In this document: piece after piece, positions 29,038 through 48,392 of the stretch
Position numbering within the stretch: position 1 is the first letter of the stretch
Layout: every line of letters begins with the position of its first letter
From: Candidatus Phosphitivorax anaerolimi
GTDB taxonomy: Bacteria; Desulfobacterota; Desulfomonilia; UBA1062
DNA: 64,000 bases
Reading direction: 5' to 3'
NCBI GenBank assembly: GCA_001896555.1
Contig: MPOS01000011.1
Coordinates: 30,223 to 94,222, forward strand
Notes under the pieces: model-generated
Database searches by the model: none
Told to the model about the DNA's origin: nothing
Seen by the model: only the letters and a program-made list of their open reading frames with translations
Program-made: the position numbers and the translations under genes

Positions 29038-31851
29038 TCAGCTCAAAGAGAGGAGATACGATCTCAGGTTCGCCTTTTCTTTCTTCAGCCCCAGCTTGTC
29101 TCTGATGTTGTTCCGGTGGAACTCTACGGCACGCTTGGAAATGTTGAGCAACTCCGAGATTTCCTTGGTCGACTTGCCCTCGCGCACCAGGTTCGCCACC
29201 TGGATCTCGGTGGGGGTGAGATTCAGATATTGGGCGGAGAGCTTCTGGAGGAAGGGAGAGATGATGTCGCCCAGGCTCGATTCCAGGAGCTGCACGTAGG
29301 CGGCCTGCCTGTCGTCGAGCGAGCATGCCTTGAGCTTTTCCAGATAGGGCAGGGCCAGCTCCTTGATGTTGGACAGGACCTTTTCCTCGAGCTCCTTCTT
29401 GTCCTGCTCGCCGCGCTTGAGCAGCACCTTGAGCGCGGTGTTGGCCTCCTCGAGATTCAGCGACTTGAGCTGAAGCTCCTCTTCCTTGCGCATGAGCGTC
29501 TGCTCGGCCAGCTTGCGCTCCTCGATCTCCCGCTTCAGCCTGATGTTCGCCCGGACGAGCTCCTCGGTCCGCTCCTCGACCCGTTGCTCGAGGCTCTCGT
29601 AGGCCTTCTGCAGCTTCTGCTCGGTGAGCTTGCGCTCGGTGATGTCCACGAACGAGCACAGCAGGCAGATGGGCCTGCCGTTCTCGTCCTTCACCATGCT
29701 CGCGGAGAGCTGCACCGCGATGGGCGTCCTGTTTTTCTTGACCGCGATGATCTCCCCGAACCAGGTGCCCTTTGCGAGCACGGTCTGGAGAATAGCGTCC
29801 GCGTCTTCCCGGGACTGGGCGAAGGTGAGCGCCGACTTTCCCAGGACCTCGGACGGATCCTTGCCGCCCCACATGCGGAGAAAGGCATCGTTGACATAGG
29901 TGATGTTGCCCTGAAGATCGCCGATAGCGATGCCGTTGATGGATGACGAGATGGCAAAGTCCTTGACCCTGAGCTCCTCTTCCATCTTCTTGCGCTCGGT
30001 GATGTCCACGAACGAGTCCATCACGCAGATGGGCTCGCCCCTGTCGTTGTACACCATGCTTGCCGAGAGGTGGACCGTGATCGGCGAGCCGTCGCTCCGG
30101 AAGCCGGACACCTCCCCTGACCAGCTTCCCTTCTCCACCACGGCCTGGAATATCTCCAGGGCTTCTTCTTCCGACTGCGCCAGATCGAGAACCGACCTGC
30201 CCAGTACCTCGGAGGGGTCTTCAGCACCCCACATGGCCAGCGCCGCGTCGTTGACGTAAGTGATCTTCCCTTCCAGATCACAGAAACCGATGCCGTCGAT
30301 GGACGAGGCGATGGCGTTTTCCCTGACCCTGAGCTCCTCTTCCATCTTCTTGCGCTCGGTGATGTCAACGAACGAGTCCATCATGCAGATGGGCTCGCCT
30401 TTGTCGTTTTTCACCAGGCTTGCCGAGAGCAGGACCGTAATCGGCGAGCCGTCCTTGCGGAAGCCGGACACCTCGCCCGTCCAGCTTCCCTTTTCCACGA
30501 TGGCCTGGAAGATCTCCAGGGCCTCCTGCTCGGATTGCGCGAGGTCCAGCGCAGACCTTCCCAGCACATCGGAGAGATCGCTGTCTCCCCACATCTTCAG
30601 GGCCGCATCGTTCACATAGGTGATTCTGCCTTCCAGATCGGAAATTCCGATGCCGTTGATGGACGAGGCGATGGCGTATTCTTTTATCTGTAGATCCTCC
30701 TCCATCTTCTTGCGCTCAGTGATGTCCACGAACGAGTCCATCATGCAGATGGGCTCGCCTTTGTCGTTTTTCACCAGGCTTGCCGAGAGCAGGACTGTAA
30801 TCGGCGAGCCGTCCTTGCGGAAGCCGGACACCTCGCCGGTCCACCCGCCTTTCTCCAGAACGGCCTGATAGATTTCTATGGCCTCTTCCTCCGACTGGGC
30901 TAGACTGAGCGCCGAGGTGCCGATGACCTCGGACGCATCCGGGGCCCCCCACATCTTCAGGGCCGCGTCGTTGACGTAGATAATGTTGCCCTCCAGGTCC
31001 GATATGCCGATGCCGTTGATGGACGACGCTAGGGCATTGTTCCTGATGCGCAGCTCCTCCTCCATCTTCTTGCGGTCAGTGATGTCCACGAACGAGCACA
31101 TGATGCAGATGGGCTCGCCTTTGTCGTTTTTCACCAGGCTTGCCGAGATGAGCACGGTGAAAGGATCACCGACTTTCCTCTTTGCGTTGACCTCTCCCTC
31201 CCACCTGCCGCTGGTGCGGATGGTGTCGATAATATCGAGGATCTCCTCCTGTGACTGGGCGAAAATCATCGCAGGTTTTCCCAGGACCTCATCGGGCTTT
31301 CCGGCACCCCACATCTTCAGGGCCGAATCGTTTGCATAGGTGATGACGCCGTCGAGGTCGGCGATGACGATGCCGTTGATGGACGAGGCCAGGGCGCTTT
31401 CCTTGACCCGCATCTCTTCTTCCATTTTCTTGCGGTCGGTGATGTCCACGAATGAGCACATCATGCACACGGGCTCGTTCGATTCATTGCGGACCAGGCT
31501 GGCCGAGAGCAGGACGGTGACCGGCGAGCCGTTTTTCCGCCGGCCGTTGATCTCTCCCGTCCAGTCGCCTTTGCACAGCACGGTCTCCATGATCTCCAGG
31601 GCCTCCTGCTCGGACTCGGCGAACACGGTCACCGGCTTGCCGATGATCTCCGCTGGGTCGGTCCCGCCCCACATCATGACGGCTGCCTGGTTCACATAGG
31701 TGATGGTGCCCTGCAGGTCGCCGATCGCAATGCCGTTGATCGACGATGCGATGGCGAACTCCTTGATCCGCAGCTCTTCCTGGATATACCTGAGCTCGTC
31801 GATCTTGTCTTTCAGGGGCTTGACTTCCTCGCTCATGCGGCTCGGCGGCAT
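29038..31851 (-). CDS. LuxR-family transcriptional regulator with eight tandem PAS domains and a C-terminal GerE-type HTH.
   Basis: C-terminal TPTEIQVANLVREGKSTKEISELLNISKRAVEFHRNNIR. Eight repeats of about 120 aa, each ending DITDRKKMEEELR/DITERKKMEE. Confidence 0.85.
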   Translation of the reverse strand: MPPSRMSEEVKPLKDKIDELRYIQEELRIKEFAIASSINGIAIGDLQGTITYVNQAAVMMWGGTDPAEIIGKPVTVFAESEQEALEIMETVLCKGDWTGEINGRRKNGSPVTVLLSASLVRNESNEPVCMMCSFVDITDRKKMEEEMRVKESALASSINGIVIADLDGVITYANDSALKMWGAGKPDEVLGKPAMIFAQSQEEILDIIDTIRTSGRWEGEVNAKRKVGDPFTVLISASLVKNDKGEPICIMCSFVDITDRKKMEEELRIRNNALASSINGIGISDLEGNIIYVNDAALKMWGAPDASEVIGTSALSLAQSEEEAIEIYQAVLEKGGWTGEVSGFRKDGSPITVLLSASLVKNDKGEPICMMDSFVDITERKKMEEDLQIKEYAIASSINGIGISDLEGRITYVNDAALKMWGDSDLSDVLGRSALDLAQSEQEALEIFQAIVEKGSWTGEVSGFRKDGSPITVLLSASLVKNDKGEPICMMDSFVDITERKKMEEELRVRENAIASSIDGIGFCDLEGKITYVNDAALAMWGAEDPSEVLGRSVLDLAQSEEEALEIFQAVVEKGSWSGEVSGFRSDGSPITVHLSASMVYNDRGEPICVMDSFVDITERKKMEEELRVKDFAISSSINGIAIGDLQGNITYVNDAFLRMWGGKDPSEVLGKSALTFAQSREDADAILQTVLAKGTWFGEIIAVKKNRTPIAVQLSASMVKDENGRPICLLCSFVDITERKLTEQKLQKAYESLEQRVEERTEELVRANIRLKREIEERKLAEQTLMRKEEELQLKSLNLEEANTALKVLLKRGEQDKKELEEKVLSNIKELALPYLEKLKACSLDDRQAAYVQLLESSLGDIISPFLQKLSAQYLNLTPTEIQVANLVREGKSTKEISELLNISKRAVEFHRNNIRDKLGLKKEKANLRSYLLSLS
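29560..31720. repeat. Tandem array of about 360-bp direct repeats (about 6-7 units) encoding the PAS modules of the regulator. Units 30360-30720 and 30720-31080 are near-identical.
   Basis: Out-of-frame ORFs recur at 30260, 30620, 30980 and 31340 with near-identical translations. The protein segment GEVSGFRKDGSPITVLLSASLVKNDKGEPICMMDSFVDITERKKMEE is repeated. Confidence 0.8.
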
Positions 31852-31978: not shown

Positions 31979-32959
31979 TCAGAACGGGATCACCACGCCG
32001 ATGGAAAAGGTTGATATGATCTCCTGCTCGAACACACCAATCTTGACGGGATCTTCAGGGTTATACGAGGACATGTCGTCGCCCTCGTAATAGTCGGGGT
32101 CTCTGGTTTTGTACGACACCTCCAGCACGGGGTCGAAGTTGTCCAGATCATACATGGCCGCGCCGGCCTCCGCCACGAGTCTGATATTGTTCTTGAACGG
32201 GATATAGATCCCGGCAAAGACCTGCAGGAGCTGCCCGAACACGGTTTCGGAATCATCGAGCCTGATCCGGTATTCAGACCCCTGGTAAGACTGCTCTCTG
32301 ATCGCGTCGCTTTCCACCTCGCGCGTCGCCATGCAGAAACCCAGGCCCCCTCCGATATAGGGGTTGATCCTTTTTTTGTCTCCTCCGTGGTGCTCGTAGA
32401 CGATGTTGAATGAAAGGGGCACGATGTAGAGCGTGGTGTCGAGGTCGACTCTCCGGAGCAGCTCGGCGCTGGTGATGATGGCCTCTCCTTCACCGCGGTA
32501 GCTGCTGCCCAGGTTTTTGTCGTTGATGTCCTCTGCGGTGACGCCCGGCTCGTTGGAGCCGGGGAAGGTCTCTTCCGCCTCCATGATGATCGACTCCCGG
32601 TTGCTGCCCGTGTCCCACTCCCCCCTGAGCATGATCACCTCGAGCGAGGCGAGGAACGAGATCTTTTCCTTGATCTTTTTTTTCGCACCCAGCGAGACGG
32701 ACAGTCCGTAGTCGAGGAAATCACGGAAGTCGCTGTCGTACACCGCGAATGCGCCGCCGGATTTTATCGAGTAGGAGAAGGTCTGGTCGCGGGGAAACTG
32801 CTGTTTTCTGGGCGCCGACACCAGGATCTCTTCGTCCTGGGTGAGGGCTGCCTTCATGGCGGGAGACTCGGGATTTGCCGTGCGTGAGAGGTTTTCGGAA
32901 CTCCAGACAACGAGCGGAAACGCCAGGATAAAAACAGTGTATGCAGCTATACGGCTCAT
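31979..32959 (-). CDS. Hypothetical outer-membrane beta-barrel protein.
   Basis: Signal peptide MSRIAAYTVFILAFPLVVWSS. C-terminal FSIGVVIPF ending in Phe. Alternating hydrophobic pattern. Confidence 0.5.
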   Translation of the reverse strand: MSRIAAYTVFILAFPLVVWSSENLSRTANPESPAMKAALTQDEEILVSAPRKQQFPRDQTFSYSIKSGGAFAVYDSDFRDFLDYGLSVSLGAKKKIKEKISFLASLEVIMLRGEWDTGSNRESIIMEAEETFPGSNEPGVTAEDINDKNLGSSYRGEGEAIITSAELLRRVDLDTTLYIVPLSFNIVYEHHGGDKKRINPYIGGGLGFCMATREVESDAIREQSYQGSEYRIRLDDSETVFGQLLQVFAGIYIPFKNNIRLVAEAGAAMYDLDNFDPVLEVSYKTRDPDYYEGDDMSSYNPEDPVKIGVFEQEIISTFSIGVVIPF

Positions 32960-33382
32960 TATAACGATCCTTAAGGCCCTTTCTTTCATATGTGCTGCCT
33001 GGAAAAAACATCCTCACCCCCGGCTGCCGCAAGGGGATAACATGTGTTCGATTCACGAGTCATGCAAGAATTATTCCCTGCCATCTATTTCGCAGGAAGC
33101 GGATAAGACTTGACATTTTATCCATGAATCTTTCATGATCCGCAGCCTGAAAGAAAATAATTTCTCCTAAAGGGCAAAACCTTGCATATTCACAAGTGAC
33201 TGCCCTTGTGATCATATCTGTTGCAATGGCGGGGCAAAGATGATTAAATAAAACAGCCATAATGAGGTCCGCTCCCGTGATTGCTGCGTTTGTCTGTTAT
33301 GCAATGGATACTGATCCAGGTCTCATCTGCAGTCATCTCTGCCGAGCAGGACGGCGAGAACCTGTGTAGGAGGTTAGAACAT

Positions 33383-34354
33383 ATGAAGGGACACCGGATA
33401 TTCCCTCTTGTCGCGGCAATCTTCTTTCTGGCATGTGCGTGCGTTTCGTGTGAAAGCGGTTCAAGCAGCAGCGACCCCGGAGAGGTCCTGCCTCCGAGAC
33501 CATGGGATAACCCTATGCCCGATCCTTCAGACGATACGACATCCTCTAGCATGGAATTGATAGGGTCTTGGGTTGGGTATTTTCTTGCCGGTGACGACGA
33601 TGTATTTGACGATGTATTTAATTATAGCAACGAAAACGATAATCCCCTGGAATTTGATTTTGATGATGATGATCTTTTTGCAATAGGGATCATTACCCGG
33701 GAAAAAGAAGCAAGATTTATTGGAGATACGTCGCAGTTCGTATGTCCTGAAGGTTCATTGGGAGCAAGTAATATTGCTGGCATTAGAACTATATTCGGAG
33801 GATACTTTGACTATTATACGTGGAACACTCAGGGGCTCGAACCATACACCGCCAATGTGGAGCCTATCTCCATCTATGGAAATGCACTCTTTTCCATATA
33901 CTTTCTTGACGGCTTCTATTGGTATACTGACACACCGGAAGCCGACAGGGATTTCTGGCAATTCCAGTTCTTCAACTACACCACCACCGGGATATCCGCG
34001 GATATTGAAAAGATCGCGGGCCAGTGGAAGATCAGCGATGCGTTCTGGAAGGGCAACACCCTGACTTTCACCATAGAGCCCAACGAAGACCGTAGGAGCG
34101 CTACCATAACCGGCACCGACACTCATACCCCTCAAAATACCTTCGAGGGAACCATCATCGAGATACACTATGACGACACCGACTTGTACGATGTCTCGCT
34201 CAAGCTCAACGAGGAATTCGACCTGGAAGGCCTGGCGACCTATGTGTCCAGCTACGATAACCAGGGTATACACGCCGAGTCTTCCCTCGCCATCGGCGTA
34301 TCCGACGGGCAACGCATGGTCACCGGCCTGGCGGCGCCGGTGCCCGAGGAATGA
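33383..34354 (+). CDS. Hypothetical lipoprotein with an acidic low-complexity segment.
   Basis: RBS TAGGAGG 8 nt upstream. Signal peptide MKGHRIFPLVAAIFFLACACVSC. Acidic run DDDVFDDVFNYSNENDNPLEFDFDDDDLF. Confidence 0.55.
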   Translation: MKGHRIFPLVAAIFFLACACVSCESGSSSSDPGEVLPPRPWDNPMPDPSDDTTSSSMELIGSWVGYFLAGDDDVFDDVFNYSNENDNPLEFDFDDDDLFAIGIITREKEARFIGDTSQFVCPEGSLGASNIAGIRTIFGGYFDYYTWNTQGLEPYTANVEPISIYGNALFSIYFLDGFYWYTDTPEADRDFWQFQFFNYTTTGISADIEKIAGQWKISDAFWKGNTLTFTIEPNEDRRSATITGTDTHTPQNTFEGTIIEIHYDDTDLYDVSLKLNEEFDLEGLATYVSSYDNQGIHAESSLAIGVSDGQRMVTGLAAPVPEE

Positions 34355-34810: not shown

Positions 34811-34826
34811 TGGCATGCTTATTGCT
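34811..34826 (+). promoter_or_regulatory. Sigma-54 (-24/-12) promoter TGGCAT-N5-TTGCT, upstream of the 34900 gene.
   Basis: TGGCATgcttaTTGCT matches the RpoN consensus TGGCAC-N5-TTGCW with GG to GC spacing of exactly 10 nt. It is preceded by an AT-rich tract. Confidence 0.55.
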
Positions 34827-34899
34827 GAATGGGTAGCCCATGGAGACCAGAGAAAGAGGCGTGCATCCAGAGCATATCTTATTCAATTCGGAGAGATCA

Positions 34900-35478
34900 A
34901 TGCGAGGTCGGATGTTTGTAGCGATTCTTCTTGCCCTGTGTCTGTTCTGTTCCCCCGCCCACGCCTGGATGTGGGAAGTCGGCGACGAGGTTCTGGCCGA
35001 GATAACCGGCGAAGGCTATTCCAGTTTTACCCTCGAAAACGAAGTCGCCCGTGCATACTTCAACATCACCACCACCACCTACACCGAGATCGATTCCCTG
35101 AAAATGGGTTACTACGACAACGGCACCGGATACGGGTGGGACGAAAACTGGGAAGGCGTATCCCTGGGTTCTGCCTCCGAGAGTCTCGTGTGCAAGGGCG
35201 TGTACATCGAGGCGGGTTTTTCCAACATGACAGACCCTGCCACCCGGCAACTCAATTTCGTCAGGGTGGGCACACCGTCCATGACAGGCCCCATCAGCGC
35301 AAACTTTATTTCGTTCAGCGGCCGCATCGAGAACCCCACGGACGGCGTTCTCGTGGACGGCAGCCGGCTGAATCTCGGCCAGAGAACGATCTACTGCAAC
35401 AATTCGGAGTTTTCCGTAACCCTGGACAGGACCTCCGGCTGGTGGTTCCACTGGGACAATGCAACGATTACCCCGTGA
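34900..35478 (+). CDS. Secreted hypothetical protein (193 aa) carrying the cluster-specific mature-N-terminal motif.
   Basis: Signal peptide MRGRMFVAILLALCLFCSPAHA, then WMWEVGDEVLAEITGEGYS. RBS GGAGAG. Confidence 0.6.
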   Translation: MRGRMFVAILLALCLFCSPAHAWMWEVGDEVLAEITGEGYSSFTLENEVARAYFNITTTTYTEIDSLKMGYYDNGTGYGWDENWEGVSLGSASESLVCKGVYIEAGFSNMTDPATRQLNFVRVGTPSMTGPISANFISFSGRIENPTDGVLVDGSRLNLGQRTIYCNNSEFSVTLDRTSGWWFHWDNATITP

Positions 35479-35737
35479 TATGAGCAGAGAGGAAAACTGA
35501 CAGGGAGTATGCATTCGGTTGTTTTGAATTGAAGTAGGGAGATCGAGTTCAAGGAGCATCTCCTTAGCCCCTGTGGTTTTGGTTATACAAAGTACCGTGA
35601 AAAGGGGGTGATGTGCTGGCAAACGTGAAACAGGAGAAATCGAAAAGCGTTACACCGTTAGGCATGAGTAGTTGGGTAAAAAACTAAAAAGCAAGTAACA
35701 GGCACCACAAAAAATAAATTTTTGGAGGCATTAAGTT

Positions 35738-36784
35738 ATGAAGAGAGTATTGACGTTTTTGGCTATCATGTTGCTGCCATTGTCCGTAATGGCAATGACA
35801 CCGGTTTCCGACCAGACCCTCTCCGATGTTACCGGCCAGGCCGGAGTCAACATCAATGCTGACCTTATGATGGACATCGCCATCGGCACCATGGCATGGG
35901 GCGATGCCGACGGTATCACTGCAAGCGGCAGCTGGCCTACCTGGGGCACCACTGCTGACGGCGGCTACGTGGGAGTCACCGGGTTCGACATTGACGGCCT
36001 GAGAATCAAGGCCCGCGAAACCGACACCTATCACGAATATGCGGCACCTGCACAGCTGAAGCCCATCACCATCGACGTTGCCACCGATCCAAACATCTAC
36101 GACGGAGCGACCTTTGTGCGGTTCGGCCTCGGCTCCCTCCAGATCACCATGGGCGCCCTCGACTTCGACGTGAGGCTCGGGACTGACGCGGCAACCCTCG
36201 CGGCTTCCGGCAACCTGCTCGGTGTTGTGAGCATCGGCGCCATGGGCATCTACATCGATCCCAAGAGCTATGTTGACATCTTCTCCGACGGCACCTGCGG
36301 CGTGAACATAGCCATGGACATCGAGATCGATCAGTTCAACATCGGCTACGTGTCCTGGGGCGACACCGACGGCGTGACCAACACAGGCATGGGCGCGATG
36401 CCCTGGATGGCTGCGGCTAGCGCCGGTTATGTCGGACTTGCCAACCTCGAGATCGGCGGCCCGATCACCGTCAGCGGTCAGCTGGCAATCGATGTCAACA
36501 CCGCCTATGCCGGCATCTACTCCCACGGCATAGTCGGGACCGATGCGGGCGCAGCCCCTGTGAGCGTTGTTCACATCCAGTTCGGCTCCGACGTCTACTC
36601 GGATCCCACTCTGGGCGCTGCTGACCTCTTCTCCGTACTCGTCGGCCCGATCACTGCCGAGGTGAAACTCGACGGCGTGGCAGCCCTGGACGGCGCCAAT
36701 GCCGGCACGCTGGGCGACATCTACATCAGCAGCTTCGGCCTCGACATCTATGGCGGCAGCTGGGTGGACATCTGGGCCCACTAA
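35738..36784 (+). CDS. Secreted protein, paralog A (348 aa). It carries the N-terminal LSDVTGQAGV motif, internally duplicated WGDxDG modules and the C-terminal SWVDIWAH.
   Basis: Signal peptide MKRVLTFLAIMLLPLSVMA, mature N-terminus MTPVSDQTLSDVTGQAGVNIN. The duplication WGDADGIT...GGYVGVTGFDIDG versus WGDTDGVT...AGYVGLANLEIGG. Confidence 0.7.
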   Translation: MKRVLTFLAIMLLPLSVMAMTPVSDQTLSDVTGQAGVNINADLMMDIAIGTMAWGDADGITASGSWPTWGTTADGGYVGVTGFDIDGLRIKARETDTYHEYAAPAQLKPITIDVATDPNIYDGATFVRFGLGSLQITMGALDFDVRLGTDAATLAASGNLLGVVSIGAMGIYIDPKSYVDIFSDGTCGVNIAMDIEIDQFNIGYVSWGDTDGVTNTGMGAMPWMAAASAGYVGLANLEIGGPITVSGQLAIDVNTAYAGIYSHGIVGTDAGAAPVSVVHIQFGSDVYSDPTLGAADLFSVLVGPITAEVKLDGVAALDGANAGTLGDIYISSFGLDIYGGSWVDIWAH

Positions 36785-36811
36785 TCAACTGCTGACTCAT
36801 GTGTAATCGAG

Positions 36812-36839
36812 AAAGGAGGGTTGGCTGCAACCCTCCTTT
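36812..36839 (+). terminator. Perfect 12-bp-stem hairpin AAAGGAGGGTTG-GCTG-CAACCCTCCTTT between paralogs A and B. Candidate partial terminator or mRNA stabiliser.
   Basis: Read from the sequence, 28 bp after the paralog A stop. There is no strong U-tract. Confidence 0.45.
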
Positions 36840-36898
36840 CTCTTCCAGGGAACATCATGCAATGCGGTGACAGGTGAGAATCGGAGGAAGAGAATTTT

Positions 36899-37924
36899 AT
36901 GAAGATAATGAAAAGCGCATCACTGGCCGTGCTGATCGTTGCGTTCCCGCTCTCCATGATGGCCATGACGCCGGTGCGGGATCACGATCTCTCCCAGGTG
37001 ATCGGCCAGGCCGGTGTGAGCATCAATACCGACATCATGATGAACATCGCCATCGACACCCTGGCATGGGGTGATTACGACGGCATTTTCGAAGGCGGCC
37101 ATCCCTCCTGGGGCACCACCGCTGACGGCGGCTATGTGGGACTGGCCGGGTTCGACGTCATCGGGCTCAGGATCAAGGCCCGCGAAAACGACACCTTCGG
37201 CGGGTATTCCGCTGCAGCGGACTTCAAGCCGATCACCATCGACGTCGCCTCCGACCCGACCTACAGCCTCTACAGCGGGTTCACCTTCGTGCGGTTCGGC
37301 CTCGGCTCCCTCCAGATCACCGTGGACCAGATGGACTTCGCGGTCTTTCTTGCAGCCCCCGGCGCCCCGGGCCAGGTGCTCGGCACGGTAAATCTCGGCG
37401 CGCTCGCCATGTACGTCAACCCGTGGAGCTACGTAGACATCTATAACAGCAGGCCGGGCAACCAGTGCGGGGTTTTCGTGACCATGAGCGTCGTGATCGA
37501 CCAGCTCGATATCGGCTATCTGTCGTGGGGCGACATTGACGGCGTGGCCAATGAAGGCATCGGCGCGATGAGCTGGATGTCAGATGGCGCGCAGGGAGCC
37601 GGCTATGTCGGGCTCTCCAACCTGCGAGTGTGGGGGCCCATCATCATGCAGGGAACGGTCGCCATCGATGTGACGACCTCGTATGAAGGCATCTACGCCC
37701 ACGGCTCGTTTGGGGACCCGGGCTGGGCCCCTGTGAGCGTTGTGCACATCGGGTTTCCCCAGGTATTCAGCCTGGATGTGGCGGGACCCATCACCGCCGA
37801 TGTGAAGCTGGACAGCTTCGCTTCCCTGAACAGTCCTGATGCCGGCACACTGGGCAACATCTATATCTCGGGACTCGGCATCGATATCCTGAACCGCAGC
37901 TGGGTGGACATCTGGGCGCACTGA
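36899..37924 (+). CDS. Secreted protein, paralog B (341 aa). A tandem duplicate of paralog A.
   Basis: Signal peptide, then MTPVRDHDLSQVIGQAGVSIN. Same WGDxDG modules and the identical C-terminus SWVDIWAH. Confidence 0.7.
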   Translation: MKIMKSASLAVLIVAFPLSMMAMTPVRDHDLSQVIGQAGVSINTDIMMNIAIDTLAWGDYDGIFEGGHPSWGTTADGGYVGLAGFDVIGLRIKARENDTFGGYSAAADFKPITIDVASDPTYSLYSGFTFVRFGLGSLQITVDQMDFAVFLAAPGAPGQVLGTVNLGALAMYVNPWSYVDIYNSRPGNQCGVFVTMSVVIDQLDIGYLSWGDIDGVANEGIGAMSWMSDGAQGAGYVGLSNLRVWGPIIMQGTVAIDVTTSYEGIYAHGSFGDPGWAPVSVVHIGFPQVFSLDVAGPITADVKLDSFASLNSPDAGTLGNIYISGLGIDILNRSWVDIWAH

Positions 37925-38114
37925 GCCCTCTCCGAGAGTCAAGCCCCGAGGCGCGGCACTGGTATAGATTCTTGAGGATGAAGATCAGGCTCTTGAGGCA
38001 GGGAAATTTTTCTTGCCTGTCTCAAGATAATGAGTGAATAGATCGAAGAGACAGTATGTGCAGAAAACAAGTGCAGGTTCGTATGGAGCGGCGGGAATGA
38101 AAGGAGATAAAGGT

Positions 38115-38999
38115 ATGAGCCCTGGCAGGAAAGGATACCGTCTTTTTTCCCGGCATTTCGCACTGTTTGCTCTTTTCGTTTTCTTTCTCCCCATTTCCGC
38201 TCCGGCTCAGATGAGCCGGCTGAGCGATGACGAGCTCTCCGAGGTGAGCGCCCGCTCGGGCATCACCTATGTGATCGGCGATTCACAGCTGCGCGTCTAC
38301 GCCGACTCATACCGGGTCTCCGACACAGATCACACCCCGCGCCACTGGATCGAGCTCAACGATTTCACCGTCGATGACGGCCAGGGCGGCTACTTCTCCA
38401 TGAACACCCCCGCTGACTACGACGACTTCAACACCCTCGACATCGGCACCACCGGCGAGGGGGATACGTATATTTTCATGAATCTTTCCACTCACGTAGA
38501 GCCGAGGACCTACACTGTCGGGAACTTCGTCTTCTGCGACCAGGACCTGGGCGGAATCAGGCTGGAAAACCTCAGGAAGGGGACTTCGGACACGTTTATC
38601 ATAGGCCCCCACGGCGATGGGATGTCCGGCATCGACATCGAGTATCAGACAGAGATCACCATCGACTCTCTGCAGTACACCTACAATACCCAGCCCGAAT
38701 CGCTCAACCTCACCGGCATCCGATTTGCCGGCAGCGCGCTCGGTGCGCCGGAAGATCCGTCATCCTGGATCTTTTCGGGAAAGTTCAAGTTCGGCGATCT
38801 TGCGAACAACAGGCCTGTGACCATTGATGTCGGTACCTATGATGACGGTGCTGTCACGTCGACCTCGGTGTTCTACAACGCACCCATGTCCGGCAGCATC
38901 CGGGTGGAAAACGTGGATTTCGGAGGGAACCAGTTCGGCCCCTGCGCCATCGACGGCATAACCGTTCATCATCTCGGCATCCAGATACCCGGTAATTGA
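38115..38999 (+). CDS. Secreted hypothetical protein with a related mature-N-terminal motif (protein C).
   Basis: Signal peptide MSPGRKGYRLFSRHFALFALFVFFLPISAPA, then QMSRLSDDELSEVSARSGITYVIGD. RBS AAAGGAGATAAAGG. The stop overlaps the next gene. Confidence 0.6.
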   Translation: MSPGRKGYRLFSRHFALFALFVFFLPISAPAQMSRLSDDELSEVSARSGITYVIGDSQLRVYADSYRVSDTDHTPRHWIELNDFTVDDGQGGYFSMNTPADYDDFNTLDIGTTGEGDTYIFMNLSTHVEPRTYTVGNFVFCDQDLGGIRLENLRKGTSDTFIIGPHGDGMSGIDIEYQTEITIDSLQYTYNTQPESLNLTGIRFAGSALGAPEDPSSWIFSGKFKFGDLANNRPVTIDVGTYDDGAVTSTSVFYNAPMSGSIRVENVDFGGNQFGPCAIDGITVHHLGIQIPGN

Positions 39000-39808
39000 C
39001 AGGGGCGGGCAAATCTGGGAGAATCCGGACTATGGAGGTTATCGCGGGCTTCCTCATCGTTCTGGCTATACTTACCACGCTCCATCCCGTCAGTGACGTA
39101 TCGGAAAGCGAACTGACGTTGTACCCGGAAGTGCCTGGAATTCAGCATGTTTTGAGATATGAGGTCAAGCCGTACTCTGTCATGAAGGACGAGAACATCG
39201 TCAAGCAGCAGTTCGACTACAGTTGCGGTTCTGCGGCGCTGGCAACCCTCCTGAACTACTACCTGGGCGAGAACTTCACCGAGGAGCAGGTGATCCAGGG
39301 GCTGATGGAGTATGGCGACATCAAGCAGCTGGAGGAGAGGCGCGCGTTCTCTCTGCTGGATATGAAGCGGTTTGTTACGGTTCTCGGCTACCAGGGCACG
39401 GGCTACACTGCGGAGCTCGAAGATCTGAAGAAGCTCGACAAGCCATGCATCGTTCCGATCGAGTTTTTCGGGTACAGGCACTTCGTGGTTTACCGTGGCA
39501 TATATGGCGATCATGTGTTCTTCGCCGACCCCTTCATGGGCAACATCAGCTTCACCTTATCGGAATTTGAAGAAATGTGGCACAGAAATATCGTGTTTAT
39601 CGTGACCGACGGCGGAGTCACCATGGATGCGCTTCTCCTCAAGGAGGAGGATTTGCGGCTCGTGGAGATCATCAGGACGAGCGATGCTCTTCCCGAGCAT
39701 GCACGTTCGACCATTCTGATCGAGCAGCAGAAGTTCATGGAATCCATCGGGAGGATCGACGAGGACGCGAACAGGAGATACCAGTTCAAGAGCATCAATG
39801 TCTATTGA
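38996..39808 (+). CDS. Membrane-anchored peptidase C39-family cysteine protease, standalone and predicted periplasm-facing.
   Basis: One N-terminal TM helix (EVIAGFLIVLAILTTL). Catalytic Cys in QQFDYSCGSAALATLLNYYLG. His and Asp in GYRHFVVYRGIYGDHVFFADPFMG. The TTG start overlaps the upstream TGA; an alternative ATG at 39032 has RBS GGGAGA. Confidence 0.7.
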   Translation: MTGAGKSGRIRTMEVIAGFLIVLAILTTLHPVSDVSESELTLYPEVPGIQHVLRYEVKPYSVMKDENIVKQQFDYSCGSAALATLLNYYLGENFTEEQVIQGLMEYGDIKQLEERRAFSLLDMKRFVTVLGYQGTGYTAELEDLKKLDKPCIVPIEFFGYRHFVVYRGIYGDHVFFADPFMGNISFTLSEFEEMWHRNIVFIVTDGGVTMDALLLKEEDLRLVEIIRTSDALPEHARSTILIEQQKFMESIGRIDEDANRRYQFKSINVY

Positions 39809-39841
39809 TGTCGCACTGCGTGCTCCGGGCCCAATCATGAA

Positions 39842-40915
39842 TTGACAGGTTACAGCAAGAGGAGACCATACGTGAAGAGACTCGCTGTTTTGATTGCTGT
39901 GTTTTTTTGCTGCCTTGTTTGTGCTGCCGACGGGAGCGCCCAGGAGCAGGAAACAGGAAGAGAGGAGCTTCTGAACCGTATCGAGGAGCTGGAGAAACGG
40001 ATCAATGAATTGACGGAAGAGAGCCGCGCCAGAAGAAGACTGGAGATCACCGAGCAGGAGAAGCAGGAGAAGGAGAAGGAAGTGCTCGAAGCAGTGGGCA
40101 GAGAATACTCTCTCGAACCAAAGCGCACGCTCGGGCTCGACTATACGCTGTCGTACAAGTATACCCCAAGCGAGAGGATTCTCAATCAGCTCCTGATCGA
40201 ACGCCAGATAGATCACGAGATCAAGCACACCATCACTACATCGTACAGCATCCTCGACAATCTGACCTTCAGCGCGGGCATTCCTTTCGTATACCGGTAC
40301 AACGAAGTGGGCACGGACAAAGAGCTGGATGAAACCGACATCGGTGATATTACCCTGGGATTTTTGATCCAGCCCATCAAGTCGAAGGCCGGCGATGTGC
40401 GGACAATTCTGGGCCTGAGCGCCTCATTGCCCACGGGCAGGAGCCCCTTCAAGATCAACCCCGAGACAGAGCTCTCGACCGGCAACGGTGTGTATGACTT
40501 TTCGCTCACCGCAAGCTTCAGCAAGCAGATCGATCCTGTTGTGGCCTTCTGGAACCTCGGCTACACCTACCGCATGGATGCCACTGGTCTGGATTACAGA
40601 GTTATGGAGCAACTAATATTGGAAGAGGTGGAGACAGGGAACTCCATCTCCGCGGGGGCAGGGATCGGCTATGCACTTTCTTACAAAGTATCGGTGAACT
40701 CGTCTTTCAGCTACACCTATCATTTCAGCTCTGCATATAAGTATACGGGTGCAGCTCAGGACGTTGAGTCCGGAGACAGATCTGAGGCCACGTTCGGCGT
40801 GGGCTTGGGCTGGAAAGCAACAAACAAGACCACCCTTTCTTTCAGTCTCGGGTACAGTCTCACGGGGTCGGGCTTCACGTTTACGGTCAGGGCCCCGTTC
40901 AGCTTTGTCCTATGA
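39842..40915 (+). CDS. Outer-membrane beta-barrel protein with an N-terminal coiled-coil segment.
   Basis: Signal peptide LAVLIAVFFCCLVCAADG. Coiled coil EELLNRIEELEKRINELTEESRARRRLEITEQEKQEKEKE. Beta-strand-rich remainder ending FSFVL. Confidence 0.55.
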   Translation: MTGYSKRRPYVKRLAVLIAVFFCCLVCAADGSAQEQETGREELLNRIEELEKRINELTEESRARRRLEITEQEKQEKEKEVLEAVGREYSLEPKRTLGLDYTLSYKYTPSERILNQLLIERQIDHEIKHTITTSYSILDNLTFSAGIPFVYRYNEVGTDKELDETDIGDITLGFLIQPIKSKAGDVRTILGLSASLPTGRSPFKINPETELSTGNGVYDFSLTASFSKQIDPVVAFWNLGYTYRMDATGLDYRVMEQLILEEVETGNSISAGAGIGYALSYKVSVNSSFSYTYHFSSAYKYTGAAQDVESGDRSEATFGVGLGWKATNKTTLSFSLGYSLTGSGFTFTVRAPFSFVL

Positions 40916-40929
40916 GGGGAGAGTGTATT

Positions 40930-42615
40930 ATGCTATTGAGGAGGTTTCCGGCTATTTGCCTGCTGCTGATCGCGGGTTTGATCAGCCCCATGCCGGCGCG
41001 TGCCGGGCTTTTCGAGCAGCTCGCGGTCTGCCCCGCGGCCTCGTCCCTGGGCAGCGCGGTGACCGCCTATCCCGAGGGGTGCGGCGGGCTGGCCGTGCAT
41101 TTCAACCCGGCCCATCTGGCGACCTATGAGGCCAGCCGCTTCGACAATGCGCTGATATTCACCATAAACAAGCGGGAGGCAACGTACACCCAGGGGATCG
41201 ACCCGGAAACCGGCGAGCTCTGGGCGCCATTCGGCGGCTGGTTCAACGACGGCAAAGACCCTCTGGACGGTGCACATGCCGAGCAGCAGAGCGGGTATAT
41301 GGTGATCCCCATCGTCGACTACGAGATCCCCTACCTGGCAGGTGCGGGCATGGGGATCATCTACAAGCCGCCCGAGCCCGAGTCGCGGCTCACCTTCGGA
41401 TTCGGACAGTATGCCCCCTTTGCGGTGGGGCTGAAGAATCACAGCGGAGACCCGTTCAGCTTCATGGGCAGGAAGGCCTTCTTCCTCCGCATGGTCCTGG
41501 CGGCCCCGGCGGTTGCATATAAGCTCACCGACACCATATCCATAGGCGCCTCGGTAGGGATCGGGGTCACCCTGTTCAGCTTCCAGACGAACATGAGAAC
41601 GCCCAACACCATGGTCGCACTGACCGGCGCCCTGGGTGAGGCGACCGAAGGTCTGGAGATCCCGGTGATATCAGAGCTGACTTTCCCGCCGCCCTGGTTC
41701 GGCGGCGGAATGCACCCCTATGAGAAATCGGGCGAGCTTGAGCTCCTGGTGGAGGACTACTTCACCACCTCGTACAACCTGGGCTTTCTGTGGGAGCCCA
41801 CGCCCTGGTTTGCCTTCGGGGCCTGTTACCAGAGCGAGTCCGAGACCACTATGGAAGGCGACTACAAGTTTTCCTACGAACGTAGATTTCAGAACACGGT
41901 CGCCTGGCTGGGGCGTTCTCCCCTGACGATCATAACAGCCGCCATGTTCGACCTGCCCTACCAGGCAGTGCCCCATCAGAAGGGCACCGCCACCGTCAGC
42001 ATGACCTGGCCCGCCCGCCTTCAGCTCGGCGTCAAACTGAAGCCCATAAAACAGCTCGTGCTCACCTGCGACGCCCACTGGACCGACTGGGAGGCATGGC
42101 CTACTCTCGAGATACAGTTCGACCAGAAGATTCAGCTTCTGAGATTCGCCCGGATGCTCGGGTATATGAACAGTCCCAAGGCCATGGTTTTGAATCTGGG
42201 TTTTGAGAACACCTGGCATTTCAGCTACGGAATCGAGATACGCCCCATCAAGCGGCTCGCCCTGCGCTTCGGGTATGAGCCCAGACCCACTTCCGTGCAG
42301 GACGACCTCTTCGGCCCTGTGCCCATGTCGGATATGGATATCTATTCTGTGGGGATCGGGTTTACCATCGAGGACCATCCCAAGCCCAAGCCCGGCAACT
42401 TCCATGAACTGCTCAAACAGATTCAGCATCCGACCGCAATCGACCTCAATGTGACGCTTGTGCAGCTCAAAGACAAGACGGTGGGGTTCAACGAAAGCAC
42501 GAATATGAACTCGATAGATTTCACCGACATTGTCTACAACCCGTATGCGGGCCTTGAGTACGAGCAGGAGATGTCCGTATGGGTGATATCGCTGAATCAG
42601 GTGTTCAAGTGGTGA
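40930..42615 (+). CDS. FadL/TodX-family outer-membrane hydrophobic-compound channel.
   Basis: Signal peptide MLLRRFPAICLLLIAGLISPMPARA. FadL-like N-terminus GLFEQLAVCPAASSLGSAVTAYPEGCGGLAVHFNPAHLA containing the NPA motif. RBS GAGGGGAGAG. Confidence 0.65.
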   Translation: MLLRRFPAICLLLIAGLISPMPARAGLFEQLAVCPAASSLGSAVTAYPEGCGGLAVHFNPAHLATYEASRFDNALIFTINKREATYTQGIDPETGELWAPFGGWFNDGKDPLDGAHAEQQSGYMVIPIVDYEIPYLAGAGMGIIYKPPEPESRLTFGFGQYAPFAVGLKNHSGDPFSFMGRKAFFLRMVLAAPAVAYKLTDTISIGASVGIGVTLFSFQTNMRTPNTMVALTGALGEATEGLEIPVISELTFPPPWFGGGMHPYEKSGELELLVEDYFTTSYNLGFLWEPTPWFAFGACYQSESETTMEGDYKFSYERRFQNTVAWLGRSPLTIITAAMFDLPYQAVPHQKGTATVSMTWPARLQLGVKLKPIKQLVLTCDAHWTDWEAWPTLEIQFDQKIQLLRFARMLGYMNSPKAMVLNLGFENTWHFSYGIEIRPIKRLALRFGYEPRPTSVQDDLFGPVPMSDMDIYSVGIGFTIEDHPKPKPGNFHELLKQIQHPTAIDLNVTLVQLKDKTVGFNESTNMNSIDFTDIVYNPYAGLEYEQEMSVWVISLNQVFKW

Positions 42616-42929: not shown

Positions 42930-44441
42930 GTGAAGAGGAAGGCTGCTTACACCATATTGGTTTCCCTGGTATTCTGCGGACTTGCGCCCATGACGATTAC
43001 TGCGGAGGATAAGGCCGCCCTCAGGGAAGAGATCATTCGGCTGGTGGAGCCGGTCGAGAAGTATCAGATCATATTTGAGTCGTTCGTGCCGAGCCCTGAT
43101 TCCCAGCACGTGGCCTGCGTGGCCCGGTCGGGCAAAAAGTTTGTCGTGATGCATGACGGCAAGGCCCAGAAGGAGTATCACTCAATCGCCAAGGAAACCC
43201 CTGTCTTCAGCCCTGATTCCCAGCACATGGCCTACAAGGCCCAGGAAGGCATCAAGTGGGTCGTCGTGCGCGACGGCAAGGAGGAAGAGCGGTTCGACAA
43301 CGTGAGCGTCCCTGAGTACAGCCCTGATTCGAAGCACCTGGCATATGTCGCCCAGAACGGAAAAAAGCAGCAGGTGGTGTTTGACGGCAAGAAGCACAAG
43401 GCCTACGACGGCATACCCCTGAAGCACAACCTGGTGTTCAGCCCCGATTCGCAGCATTTCGCCTACTCCGTCCTGAAGGGGGGCAAAATGGTGGTGGTGA
43501 TGGACGGCAAGGAGGGAAAGGAATACGACCAGGTTTCGTTCCCGATATTCAGCCCGGACTCGAAGCACATGGTCTACCCTGCCAGGAGAGGGGATAAATG
43601 GTTTGTGGTAAAGGACGGGGAAGAAGGGCCCGAGTATGACCTTGTTGGTGTGTTCAGGTTCAGCCCTGACAGCTCCCGGTTTGCCTACACGGCAAAGATC
43701 GGCGGCAAGGCAGTGATGGTGGATGACGGCAAGGAGGGGCCGAAATTCACAGACATCGCCATGCCCATGTTCAGCCCTGACTCGAAGCACATGGCCTATC
43801 TGGCCATCGACGGCGACAAGATGCTCATGGTCATGGACGGGAATAAGGGCAAAAAGTATGACGAGATCAACGACCTGGCCTTCAGCCCGGACTCCGCCCG
43901 GTATCTCCTCACCGTAAGAAGCGGCAAAGACTGGACGGCCATTGTCGACGGAAAAGAAGCGGGCAGATACACGAACATCTTCCTGCCCGGCTTCAGCCCG
44001 GATTCAAAGCATTATTCGTTCATGGCCAGGAAGGGCGAGAAGTGGCTCCTAGTGTATGACGGGAAAGACGGCACGCTCTACGATTTCGTCACCCTCGCCC
44101 AGTTCAGCAGGGATTCGAACCACTATGCCTTCATGGCGAAAAAAGGCGAAAAGTGGGTGGTGGTGAAGGACGGCAGGGAGTCTCAGGAGTACGACGGGGT
44201 AGCGCTTCCGATGTTCTCGCCTGATTCCAGGCACTTCGCCTTCGCTGCAGTGAGAGACAACGCCTGGTTCGTGGTGGCGGACGGGGTGGAGGGGAACGAG
44301 CGCTTTGCCGGGTTCCTGAAAGGAACCGCTCTGCTGTTCGAAACAGATGATGTCTTTCACATCCTGGGCCTCCAGCTCAACATGGTCAGCCCCACCGAAG
44401 CGAGCATGAATATCGTGAAGCTCAAAGGGGAGATCAAATAA
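42930..44441 (+). CDS. Lipoprotein composed of about 11 tandem PD40/TolB-like repeats.
   Basis: GTG start with RBS AAGGAG. Signal peptide VSLVFCGLAPMTITA. The repeat is FSPDS(K/Q)H(M/L/F)AY.A..G.KW.VV.DGKEG.(E/K)YD. Confidence 0.7.
   Translation: MKRKAAYTILVSLVFCGLAPMTITAEDKAALREEIIRLVEPVEKYQIIFESFVPSPDSQHVACVARSGKKFVVMHDGKAQKEYHSIAKETPVFSPDSQHMAYKAQEGIKWVVVRDGKEEERFDNVSVPEYSPDSKHLAYVAQNGKKQQVVFDGKKHKAYDGIPLKHNLVFSPDSQHFAYSVLKGGKMVVVMDGKEGKEYDQVSFPIFSPDSKHMVYPARRGDKWFVVKDGEEGPEYDLVGVFRFSPDSSRFAYTAKIGGKAVMVDDGKEGPKFTDIAMPMFSPDSKHMAYLAIDGDKMLMVMDGNKGKKYDEINDLAFSPDSARYLLTVRSGKDWTAIVDGKEAGRYTNIFLPGFSPDSKHYSFMARKGEKWLLVYDGKDGTLYDFVTLAQFSRDSNHYAFMAKKGEKWVVVKDGRESQEYDGVALPMFSPDSRHFAFAAVRDNAWFVVADGVEGNERFAGFLKGTALLFETDDVFHILGLQLNMVSPTEASMNIVKLKGEIK
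43060..44300. repeat. About 117-bp tandem DNA periodicity underlying the PD40-like protein repeats.
   Basis: The recurring peptide FSPDSKH-AY at roughly 39-aa spacing implies in-frame DNA repeats. Confidence 0.6.
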
Positions 44442-44629: not shown

Positions 44630-45712
44630 TCAGCCCCGGGTTTCCTGCGGGATGGTCCTCACCAGCTTCACGCCGATGATCATGGCGGACCCGATGCCCA
44701 CGATGATGACCGGGACCATGTGGAAGAAGTGATAGGCAAGAGTAAGCCCTGCGGCCTCTGTCGCCGGGATGCCGAAGATCATGAGCCCGAACACCCCGCC
44801 CGCCTCCCACAGGCCCCAATATCCCGGAACCGATGGGAGCATGATGAAAAAGCAGATGATGAGCTCCACGGCAAATGCCTGAAGGAACGATATCTGCACT
44901 CCAGGGAAACCGAATGTCAGGAGATACAGCGCCAGGCCGAGCATCGCCCAGAGGGCAAAGGAGAGCAGCAGGCACAGTACAAGGTTCAGGGGACTTTTCA
45001 GGATGTCGAACCCTACGGCGAAGTTATCCAGGAGACAGGTTATTTTCGTACACAGACCTGCCCGGAGCTTTTCCCTGAACGGCTGCTGCGCGAAGAACAT
45101 CATGTCGGGCGTCTTGAGGATGATCCGGTTGAAGACACTTCTCGTCGATGAGAAGCTGATGAGTAATGTGACCACCACGAGGACGAGACTGAACTTGAGC
45201 GTGGCCTTCCAGAGGCCGTCAAGCAGCGCCGGGGTGAGATGATAGGTTGCGAAGGTGATGTCCAGAGATGGATCGATAGGAACGGCGGCCAGTATATAAA
45301 TGAAGAATGAGAGCAGGGCCGCTGCATCGAATATTCTGTCTATTCCCGCCGTGGCGAGCACTTTAGAGAACTCGACGTTTTCCTTCTTGTAAAACACGGC
45401 GGGCCTGGCTATCTCCCCCACGCGGCCCGGGAAGACACTGCTCATCATAAAACCGATCATTACCGGGTGAAAAGCACTCCAGAAGCCGGTTTTTTTCACG
45501 GGCAGCAGGATGAGCTGCCAACGCCACACCCTGAGCACATAGCTCAGAAAAGCCACGAGGAGCGAAGGGATGACCCACCAGTAGTTGATGACCTTCAGAT
45601 AGTCGATGAGCTCCCGCAAGGGGATATTGACAAACGTGAGATAGAGAGCGGCTCCGGAGAAGACAATGCCCGCAATCAGTGAAAAGATAGTTTTTTTATT
45701 CAGTGTGATCAT
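44630..45712 (-). CDS. Lysylphosphatidylglycerol-synthase-TM-like (flippase-like, UPF0104) membrane protein.
   Basis: Polytopic. Segment LRVWRWQLILLPVKKTGFWSAFHPVMIGFMMSSVFPGRVGEIARPAVFYKKE is typical of the LPG_synthase_TM family. I trimmed to the MITLNKK start. Confidence 0.6.
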   Translation of the reverse strand: MITLNKKTIFSLIAGIVFSGAALYLTFVNIPLRELIDYLKVINYWWVIPSLLVAFLSYVLRVWRWQLILLPVKKTGFWSAFHPVMIGFMMSSVFPGRVGEIARPAVFYKKENVEFSKVLATAGIDRIFDAAALLSFFIYILAAVPIDPSLDITFATYHLTPALLDGLWKATLKFSLVLVVVTLLISFSSTRSVFNRIILKTPDMMFFAQQPFREKLRAGLCTKITCLLDNFAVGFDILKSPLNLVLCLLLSFALWAMLGLALYLLTFGFPGVQISFLQAFAVELIICFFIMLPSVPGYWGLWEAGGVFGLMIFGIPATEAAGLTLAYHFFHMVPVIIVGIGSAMIIGVKLVRTIPQETRG

Positions 45713-48287: not shown

Positions 48288-48392
48288 ACCGAATCGTGGA
48301 GGTACTATGCTGTGGCCCCTCTGTTCACGAATGGCGTTTTCCGATAAGACCGGGGCATATGAAGTGTTCGGCTGCCTACAGGAGAACATGCT

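Follow-up and report, generated by a model that had tools for sequence, protein, structure and literature searches.

The stretch analyzed here, a 64 kb window of contig MPOS01000011.1 of Candidatus Phosphitivorax anaerolimi, carries between 34.8 and 44.4 kb a cluster of eight co-oriented genes on the + strand, labeled A to H. This cluster probably encodes a Fil-type system for exporting and assembling a proteinaceous surface fiber at the outer membrane, a distant relative in the Desulfobacterota of the fil system of Acinetobacter that is also related to the Fap system of Pseudomonas. Gene starts and ends were set from ribosome-binding sites and from the way genes are called on related contigs, some of them nearly identical, and the resulting features are as follows (positions in nucleotides, nt, of the window; protein lengths in amino acids, aa; L087 is the Acinetobacter baumannii fil locus used for comparison):

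34811-34826, + strand: sigma-54-type promoter element, TGGCATGCTTATTGCT
34900-35478, + strand: A, 192 aa, secreted; signal peptide running to AHA, leader MWEVGDEVLAEITGE at nt 34969-35013, C-terminus ...GWWFHWDNATITP
35738-36784, + strand: B, 348 aa, FilA-like DUF6160 protein; leader MTPVSDQTLSDVTGQ at nt 35795-35839, C-terminus ...SWVDIWAH
36899-37924, + strand: C, 341 aa, paralog of B; leader MTPVRDHDLSQVIGQ at nt 36965-37009, C-terminus ...SWVDIWAH
38115-38999, + strand: D, 294 aa, distant DUF6160 paralog; leader MSRLSDDELSEVSAR at nt 38211-38255, C-terminus ...AIDGITVHHLGIQIPGN
36761-36784 (in B) and 37901-37924 (in C): C-terminal ...H strand, with its counterpart in FilA at L087 7545-7568
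39032-39808, + strand: E, 258 aa, standalone C39 cysteine peptidase of the FilB type; N-terminal anchor MEVIAGFLIVLAILTTL
39872-40915, + strand: F, 347 aa, outer-membrane barrel of the FilC/FapF type
40930-42615, + strand: G, 561 aa, FadL/TodX-family outer-membrane barrel of the FilD type
42930-44441, + strand: H, 503 aa, secreted, with ~10 PD40/TolB-like repeats; conserved accessory gene

An initial annotation, made from the DNA letters alone, had described 34811-42615 as a single operon. Its seven open reading frames (ORFs) and their order were borne out, but the conserved cluster does not end with the seventh and runs on to H. The same annotation had placed overlapping stop and start codons at 38996 (TTG) and 40912 (ATG), which are most likely artifacts of taking the longest ORF, as both the ribosome-binding sites and the homologs favor later starts. 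Homologs of E, F and G are called at 258, 347, and 561 aa, that is, from the downstream starts, and good ribosome-binding sites lie 5′ of 39032, 39872, and 40930, so that the genes are separated by spacers of ~32 (D-E), ~63 (E-F), and ~14 nt (F-G), tightly packed and without overlap. The 258-aa form of E is on record in databases, the exact E sequence with the TTG start is not, and the E gene is 99% identical to a contig of Syntrophaceae bacterium UBA1062; in all, E has more than 4000 homologs. Intrinsic terminators and sigma-70 promoters between the genes are no more frequent than in shuffled sequence, and no relevant tandem DNA repeats were found.

Proteins A to D all begin with classical Sec signal peptides that end in AxA (AHA, VMA, MMA, and APA, respectively), and the leader starts 0-1 residue past the signal-peptide site, reading MWEVGDEVLAEITGE in A, MTPVSDQTLSDVTGQ in B, MTPVRDHDLSQVIGQ in C, and MSRLSDDELSEVSAR in D, with GYSS, AGVN, AGVS, and SGIT, respectively, immediately behind it. 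That four consecutive secreted proteins share a motif after the signal peptide had already been noticed, and the observation extends to their orthologs, as the motif is kept in 158 A-D orthologs over 86 related loci. Its length, originally put at about 12 residues, has to be revised: the motif spans 15 residues, and in B, C, and D these form the start of a DUF6160 domain of ~60-90 residues. Taking the last motif residue as position -1, the consensus of 132 distinct leaders of A-, B-, C-, and D-type orthologs from the 86 loci has M or L at -15, a hydrophobic residue at -12, S at -11, D at -10, E or D at -8, L or M at -7 (100%), V or I at -4 (>90% in A, B, and D; ~80% in C), G or A at -2 (~100%), and mostly Q at -1 (33-85% depending on the family), otherwise E, R, or A. 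At +1 the residue is A, S, or G, and +2 is G in the B, C, and D families; leaders of the A family are followed by G(+1)-F(+2). Written out in full, the leader pattern is M(-15)-x-x-hydrophobic(-12)-S-D-x-E/D(-8)-L(-7)-x-x-V/I(-4)-T-G/A(-2)-Q(-1).

A 21-mer profile of this leader, scanned over all six frames of the window, picks out only A to D (16.6-27.2 bits), with the next best match at 2.5 bits. We note that the four copies of the window were themselves among the 132 training sequences, so that the independent support for the motif is its conservation in other loci. Extending the same profile search for further cargo, which had been proposed at the outset, to the related loci yielded 12 matches outside the A-D groups, every one of them a signal-peptide protein adjoining the C39 gene.

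The leader had been likened to the rhythm of double-glycine leaders, and this likeness is borne out position by position when the 132 leaders are set against the published determinants of C39 recognition. In the recognition element characterized for LahT150 and ComA, L(-12)-x3-E(-8)-L(-7) stands ahead of a Gly-Gly/Ala/Ser pair (PMC6363468), and V-4, L-7, and L-12 lie on a two-turn helix (-4 to -11) that is packed in a hydrophobic groove ~20 Å from the active site (PMC6363468). The Fil-type leader has hydrophobic residues at -4, -7, and -12 (and in addition at -15) and an acidic residue at -8, with a spacing identical to that of these determinants, plus S at -11 and a small residue at -2; what it does not have is Gly-Gly, Gly-Ala, or Gly-Ser at -2/-1, the difference lying at -1. 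When the 40-residue mature N-termini were searched against NCBIfam (E ≤ 10), no bacteriocin-type GG-leader model matched, the only match being FilA, and the likeness to GG leaders is therefore one of compared positions and not of a profile match. In the searchable literature, we found nothing that links DUF6160, FilA, or FilB to leader processing; the match between the DUF6160 leader and the C39 determinants is likewise absent from it, and DUF6160 is mentioned only in one incidental paper.

The counterpart of such a leader would be the peptidase E, which matches Pfam Peptidase_C39 (PF03412) with 63.8 bits against a cut-off of 22. Its residues Q59, C65, H150, and D166 are invariant in 15 homologs of 50-76% identity, and align with Q21, C27, H101, and D117 of LahT150, for which the roles of the Cys, His, and Asp and of the oxyanion Gln are taken from PMC6363468. 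The description of E as a standalone C39 peptidase with an anchor and intact Cys/His/Asp motifs is thus upheld. The protein consists of an uncharged N-terminal hydrophobic anchor, the catalytic domain, and a conserved C-terminal extension, and both the uncharged N-terminal segment and the extension recur in A. baumannii FilB; no ABC transporter is fused to E or present within the cluster. We take the catalytic domain to be periplasmic, because a strongly acidic segment follows the anchor, because FapD is periplasmic, and because a cut on the cytoplasmic side would remove the signal peptide prior to export. We also observed that in the clinical isolate A. baumannii DETAB-P16 (L087 7863-8702), filB is broken by an in-frame stop, reflecting either a pseudogene or a sequencing error.

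AlphaFold2 (AF2) models of B and D (predicted local distance difference test, pLDDT, of 84 and 83, respectively) contain confident all-beta bodies, which bear no likeness to any solved structure. In both models, the leader forms a short helix apart from the folded body (residues 25-29 in B and 38-43 in D), followed by a linker with pLDDT <50 at positions -3 to -1 (T-G-Q at 32-34 in B and E-V-S-A-R at 43-47 in D), and the first beta-strand of the body starts at +2/+3. The modeled geometry is as would be expected for a leader that can be removed, and, taken with the conserved positions, the leader sequence points to a C39 recognition and cleavage element.

A comparison with the C39 domains of AMS/PCAT ABC exporters brings out both shared and divergent features. 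E and A-D share with LahT150 (6MPZ) and PCAT1 (4RY2) the Q/C/H/D set and the leader spacing at -12, -8, -7, -4, and -2. In the AMS/PCAT systems, however, the peptidase is fused to an ABC transporter, the leader begins the protein, the cargo consists of peptides, and the residue at -1 is G, A, or S, whereas E is standalone and presumably periplasmic, the leader trails a Sec signal, the cargo is folded and 170-330 residues long, and -1 is mostly Q (also E, R, or A).

A conceptual likeness is also offered by curli, where the N22 segment at the mature N-terminus of CsgA directs Sec-exported subunits to the CsgG channel, although there is no sequence homology, no protease step is involved, CsgG forms a nonameric lipoprotein channel, and amyloid repeats make up the subunits. 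By this precedent, the leader might never be cleaved and might serve in the periplasm as a targeting or chaperoning signal, docking the subunits on the coiled coil of F, on H, or on a non-cutting E, with E cutting elsewhere, for instance in the linker of F. We consider this unlikely, albeit worth keeping in view: the substrate of FapD was not identified, and FapF has been proposed to be cut in its linker (PMC5557850), C39-like domains without a cleavage function occur in type I secretion systems (PMC5557850), and the residue at -1 is not G, A, or S. Against these points stand the retention of all catalytic residues in E, a motif that fits what the proteases bind, down to the small residue at -2, and the arrangement of a flexible linker followed by a folded body.

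The two barrel proteins encoded downstream of E are readily assigned. F matches Pfam Phenol_MetA_deg with 48.8 bits. Behind its signal peptide comes a charged segment rich in heptads (~residues 25-80), and the C-terminal part is a beta-barrel, in which residues 153-345 match the sequences of the FapF crystal structures 5O65, 5O67, and 5O68 (E 6e-14). By its sequence and by analogy to FapF, the N-terminal segment is probably a coiled coil, in keeping with the earlier description of F as a coiled-coil outer-membrane barrel. G, likewise rightly recognized as a FadL-like outer-membrane channel, is a clear member of the Toluene_X/FadL family (Pfam Toluene_X, 125 bits against a cut-off of 29.7) with a typical FadL N-terminal hatch-type sequence, and is set here in a protein-export operon. 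H is built of repeats of the form FSPDSKH..AY....G.KW.VV.DGKEG..YD, which match Pfam PD40 and NCBIfam TmcD_fam (E 8e-46), and has no similarity to FilE or FilF of Acinetobacter. The hidden Markov model searches that had been suggested as a check, run against Pfam and NCBIfam, thereby gave families for B to H and none for A.

The initial annotation had stated that no characterized system combines these genes. This does not hold, since the core of the cluster matches the Acinetobacter fil locus gene for gene and in the same order, and the pair of C39 peptidase and barrel corresponds to FapD/FapF. In L087, the order is FilA, C39, FilC, FilD, FilE, and FilF, as in Table S3 of PMC4751259, and phmmer matches E to FilB with an E-value of 7e-30, F to FilC with 1.5e-31, and G to FilD with 1.6e-71 over the full length. 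The best NCBIfam matches of E, F, and G are the FilB, FilC, and FilD models of the “putative pilus system” (FilA to FilD, NF050077-NF050080), with the Fap models second: E scores 207 bits with FilB (cut-off 475) and 115 with FapD (cut-off 330), F 152 bits with FilC (cut-off 630) and 71 with FapF (cut-off 700), and G 279 bits with FilD (cut-off 970) and has no Fap model. B and C match FilA with 45 and 38.5 bits (cut-off 220) and match no Fap family.

FilA itself carries the leader, as its signal peptide ends in ...ANAMA and is followed by MQSMDDAALSAATGQ and then DGINI, placing the same leader in the same position as in A to D; a DUF6160 subunit ending in ...GH and the order C39, FilC, FilD are shared as well. 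FilA has been identified by Edman degradation as a cell-surface component of the Fil fimbriae of Acinetobacter sp. Tol 5 grown on triacylglycerol (PMC3498257, PMC11784438). In contrast to the single FilA of Acinetobacter, the present cluster has three DUF6160 paralogs and the unrelated leader-bearing protein A, has H and two upstream genes, U1 and U2 (see below), in place of FilE and FilF, is preceded by a sigma-54-type promoter, and belongs to the phylum Desulfobacterota.

Kinship with the Pseudomonas Fap system is more distant. FapD is a periplasmic C39 peptidase, the catalytic Cys of which is needed for secretion of FapC through the trimeric coiled-coil barrel FapF (PMC5557850), and the Fap proteins are without canonical C39 sequences (PMC5557850). 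The two systems share a standalone C39 peptidase, periplasmic in FapD and presumably so in E, and a barrel with a periplasmic coiled coil (predicted in F) for the export of Sec-delivered subunits. Fap has amyloid subunits with Q/N-rich repeats, no FadL-type barrel, and a FapD with a cleavable signal peptide. The homology of E and F to FapD and FapF, and the presence of an operon with several secreted subunits, would also fit a Fap-like functional amyloid with B and C exported unfolded through F. We deem this quite improbable, as B, C, and D lack Q/N-rich imperfect repeats as well as any FapB, FapC, or FapE match, their AF2 models (B and D) are confidently globular and all-beta, and the Fil models outscore the Fap models for both E and F. 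In addition, A to D match none of the FapA, FapB, FapC, and FapE families in Pfam or NCBIfam, and in the Aeromonas and Cupriavidus fap loci examined the leader profile finds nothing and a FadL gene corresponding to G is absent. A possible leader in Aeromonas FapE (PELADGELAHLRGR), matched by eye, was discarded as unsupported, with a profile score of -1.4 bits and an hhalign probability <1% for A, B, and D against FapE. The segment concerned in A. caviae FapE (L090 7557-8204), PELADGELAHLRGRY, lies ~25 residues past the signal peptide and shows by eye L-12, D-10, E-8, L-7, L-4, and G-2; at -1.4 bits against the profile, the likeness is an unverified lead toward the substrate of FapD.

The Pfam names of F and G also fit a different function, in which the two barrels (COG4313 “phenol MetA” and FadL/TodX) serve the uptake of hydrophobic substrates in a syntrophic degrader of fatty acids or hydrocarbons, with A to D as substrate-binding or surface-conditioning proteins. 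The hosts (Syntrophaceae, Smithella, and Desulfobacterales) agree with such a role, as does the fact that the Fil fimbriae of Tol 5 were seen on triacylglycerol-grown cells (PMC3498257). We nevertheless hold uptake to be very improbable, as F is closer to FilC/FapF than to generic COG4313 channels and has a periplasmic coiled-coil segment of the secretion-pore type, no catabolic genes are adjacent, and the dedicated peptidase and the leaders would be left unexplained.

Turning to the cargo, the bodies behind the four leaders are, as originally described, unrelated or paralogous. B, C, and D match Pfam DUF6160 at their N-termini with 47.8, 45.4, and 50.4 bits, respectively, against a gathering score of 27 (E 1e-11 for C and 2.7e-13 for D). 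B and C are paralogs at 57% identity, D is a distant paralog of B (hhalign probability 99%, E 7e-18 over ~190 columns), and A has the leader alone in common with B and D (hhalign E 1e-5 to 9e-5). No Pfam, NCBIfam, or PHROGs family covers the body of A, and neither A nor B, D, or U1 matches any of the PHROGs phage families. The A family comprises 119 clusters (50% identity) among 1.84 billion cluster representatives, and the leader stands directly behind the signal peptide in 78 of these 119 representatives. Two fusion proteins, P0336 (431 aa) and P0342 (443 aa), join a leader and DUF6160 N-terminus to an A-type C-terminal domain; as sequence evidence of the Rosetta-stone type, these fusions link the A- and DUF6160-type bodies functionally and argue for one common structure. 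The leader-bearing proteins have DUF6160 or A-type bodies only, some of them fused, and no enzymatic or toxin domain occurs in any leader-bearing protein examined, which argues for dedicated structural subunits over a general secretion route. Secretion of soluble toxins or bacteriocin-like proteins, for which the combination of C39 and leader as a hallmark of bacteriocin maturation might speak (PMC6363468) by analogy to class II bacteriocin export, is highly improbable for a cluster with neither an ABC transporter nor an immunity gene, whose cargo consists of beta-rich paralogs of 170-330 residues with Sec signals and conserved termini and without such domains.

The C-termini of the cargo are conserved as well. 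In B/C-type proteins and in A. baumannii FilA, an alternating hydrophobic strand ends in A, G, or P followed by H (SWVDIWAH and TITISGH, respectively), as it does in ~50 of 56 B-type orthologs, and this strand with its terminal H could be a polymerization or outer-membrane-targeting signal. The D and A families have conserved C-termini of their own, and D is nearly always encoded directly upstream of the C39 gene. As regards variation, 29 of the clusters among the 120 matches listed for B are at 84-99% identity, and D has few such variants; B could be a strain-variable, surface-exposed subunit.

To assess the conservation of the gene order, relatives were collected in a one-genome-per-species scan with E, which returned 175, and synteny was read from the best 80 of 175. 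These best 80 belong to Syntrophales, Smithella, Desulfomonilia, Desulfobacterales, and Geobacter-type metagenome-assembled genomes, with three exceptions binned as Methanobacteriota, Candidatus Saccharibacteria, and an unclassified “bacterium”. Of the 49 species-representative loci that reach far enough downstream, 42 have F and G behind E, and 26 of 49 have H no more than 9 kb from the C39 gene; several Desulfobacterales and Geobacter loci carry H between D and E. The C39 gene is preceded by at least one gene for a leader-bearing protein in 29 of 38 loci, and by at least three in 18 of 38. Synteny across the 80 species-representative genomes, conservation of the motif, and the catalytic residues of the peptidase had all been named beforehand as points on which the proposal could fail, and all three hold. 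The Smithellaceae chromosome OY821638.1 has two C39/FilC/FilD modules (L023 at 5.06 Mb and L026 at 2.38 Mb), one with DUF6160 genes and H, and the other with only an A-type gene upstream.

The assignment of the cluster to sigma-54 control is likewise strengthened. The element ahead of A has the form TGGCAT-N5-TTGCT (-24 GG/-12 GC) and lies ~60 nt ahead of the ribosome-binding site of A, and TGGCATGCTTATTGCT is the sole one-mismatch match to TGGCAC-N5-TTGCW in the window. The same element (TGGCAT/A-N5-TTGCT) recurs 5′ of the A orthologs: 16 of 42 loci have it, compared with a background rate of 0.03 sites per 360 nt, and among these loci are some with a C39 protein of just ~50-75% identity. Both the consensus site and its conservation in related genomes thus support a sigma-54 promoter, which we predict to be active. 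A second sigma-54-like match, TGGCTATCATGTTGCT at 35760-35775, lies inside the signal-peptide coding sequence of B, where it is conserved as it encodes LAIMLL, and is probably no promoter. No Sigma54_activat domain, marking an enhancer-binding protein, was found in the ten flanking ORFs scanned.

We therefore favor a Fil-type export and assembly system, as stated at the outset, and the earlier proposal of periplasmic C39 maturation and outer-membrane export of a surface structure agrees with all of the findings on homology, leader, and synteny. A plausible course of events would be the following. The genes would be transcribed from the sigma-54 promoter at 34811-34826. Sec would take A to D across the inner membrane, whereupon signal peptidase I would cut at AxA and expose the 15-residue leader. 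Membrane-anchored, periplasmic E would recognize this leader and probably cut it at, or immediately beside, G/A-Q|A/S-G, right ahead of the first beta-strand, after which the subunits would, on the model of the Fap experiments, pass through the FapF-like pore F. G might act as an anchor or lateral gate, and H, a presumed periplasmic protein of beta-propeller repeats, as a chaperone or scaffold. By analogy to the Acinetobacter Fil fimbriae, and considering the conserved termini, B and C (the FilA orthologs, with the ...AH end) would polymerize into the bulk of the fiber, and D and A may be minor subunits such as an initiator, tip, or anchor.

One may go a step further and regard the leader as the sorting signal of a distinct two-step outer-membrane pathway, in which Sec export is followed by C39 cleavage with a shifted P1 (G/A-Q versus G-G) that licenses hand-over to the FapF-like pore and the FadL-like barrel, with the same logic applying to FapD, and with a subunit fold that has no solved representative. 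We put this forward tentatively, as possible rather than probable.

Taking stock of what weighs against a Fil-type fiber system, we note first that all of the Fil scores lie far below the curated cut-offs, meaning that the proteins are homologs of, and not the same as, the named Fil proteins. FilE and FilF homologs are absent by phmmer of the window proteins A-H, U1, and U2 against the L087 FilE and FilF ORFs, and the link between the Acinetobacter fil genes and the fiber is itself correlative (PMC3498257). The leader has Q, E, or R at -1 instead of G, A, or S, and canonical C39 S1 pockets are narrow. The placement of the E domain in the periplasm is drawn from its flanking charges and the analogy to FapD. 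Finally, cleavage, secretion, and fibers are predictions from the genes, both for the cluster and for its Desulfobacterota homologs.

With regard to novelty, the kind of system is already known from the NCBIfam names, the Pfam DUF, and the kinship to Fap, and the cluster diverges from what is known in its multiple cargo, in having H for FilE/FilF, in its sigma-54 promoter, and in its phylum. New here are the correspondence of the leader to the double-glycine determinants, A as an uncurated leader-bearing family, H as a fifth conserved member, and the ...AH end shared by B/C and FilA.

Two further genes lie upstream of the cluster:

33383-34354, + strand: U1, secreted or lipoprotein-like; kept just 5′ of A in the closest clade
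31979-32989, - strand: U2, divergent; adjoins U1 in the closest clade

Within that clade, U1 and U2 are kept 5′ of A down to a C39 identity of ~53%, and U1 orthologs occupy the same position in L001, L002, L004, L011, L012, L014, L016, L017, L020, L021, L025, and L033. U1 has no family match in Pfam or NCBIfam, and the sole family match of U2 is a weak one to the outer-membrane protein PorG, such that the membership of both in the system is uncertain. We considered H and U1 as possible equivalents of FilE and FilF, and found no sequence similarity.

The wider surroundings contain a regulator and several envelope-related genes. The nearest regulator, at 29038-31851 on the - strand, has 937 aa with six PAS domains and a C-terminal LuxR/GerE helix-turn-helix, and GerE-type regulators flank the homologous cluster in a Smithellaceae genome too (L006 5026-5772 and 15316-15624). 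Further upstream, 23341-28792 (+ strand) holds a separate envelope set of an MMPL/RND-type transporter, a LolA-like protein, and a DUF1302 outer-membrane protein. Downstream, 44630-51723 holds envelope and glycan genes, which encode two membrane proteins (one of the LPG_synthase_TM family, the other an 808-aa multi-TPR protein), a GDP-mannose 4,6-dehydratase, a family-2 glycosyltransferase, and an epimerase. In L004, the genes next downstream of the cluster are those for methyltransferases and one of the RgpF type.

A standalone periplasmic C39 peptidase, FapD or FilB, is needed for FapF-type export, and its substrates and recognition rules have been an open question since 2017 (PMC5557850). 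The presence of a sharply conserved GG-like leader on every putative Fil-type cargo protein makes this question directly testable. Further conserved parts of the system, namely the family of A, the protein H, and the AH motif at the C-terminus, are defined here as well. As the Acinetobacter locus holds the vaccine candidate FilF, the mechanism of assembly is also of some medical relevance. In the anaerobic Desulfobacterota (Syntrophaceae, Smithella, Desulfobacterales, and Geobacter), Fil-type machinery is widespread, and surface fibers in such anaerobes matter for aggregation and syntrophy.

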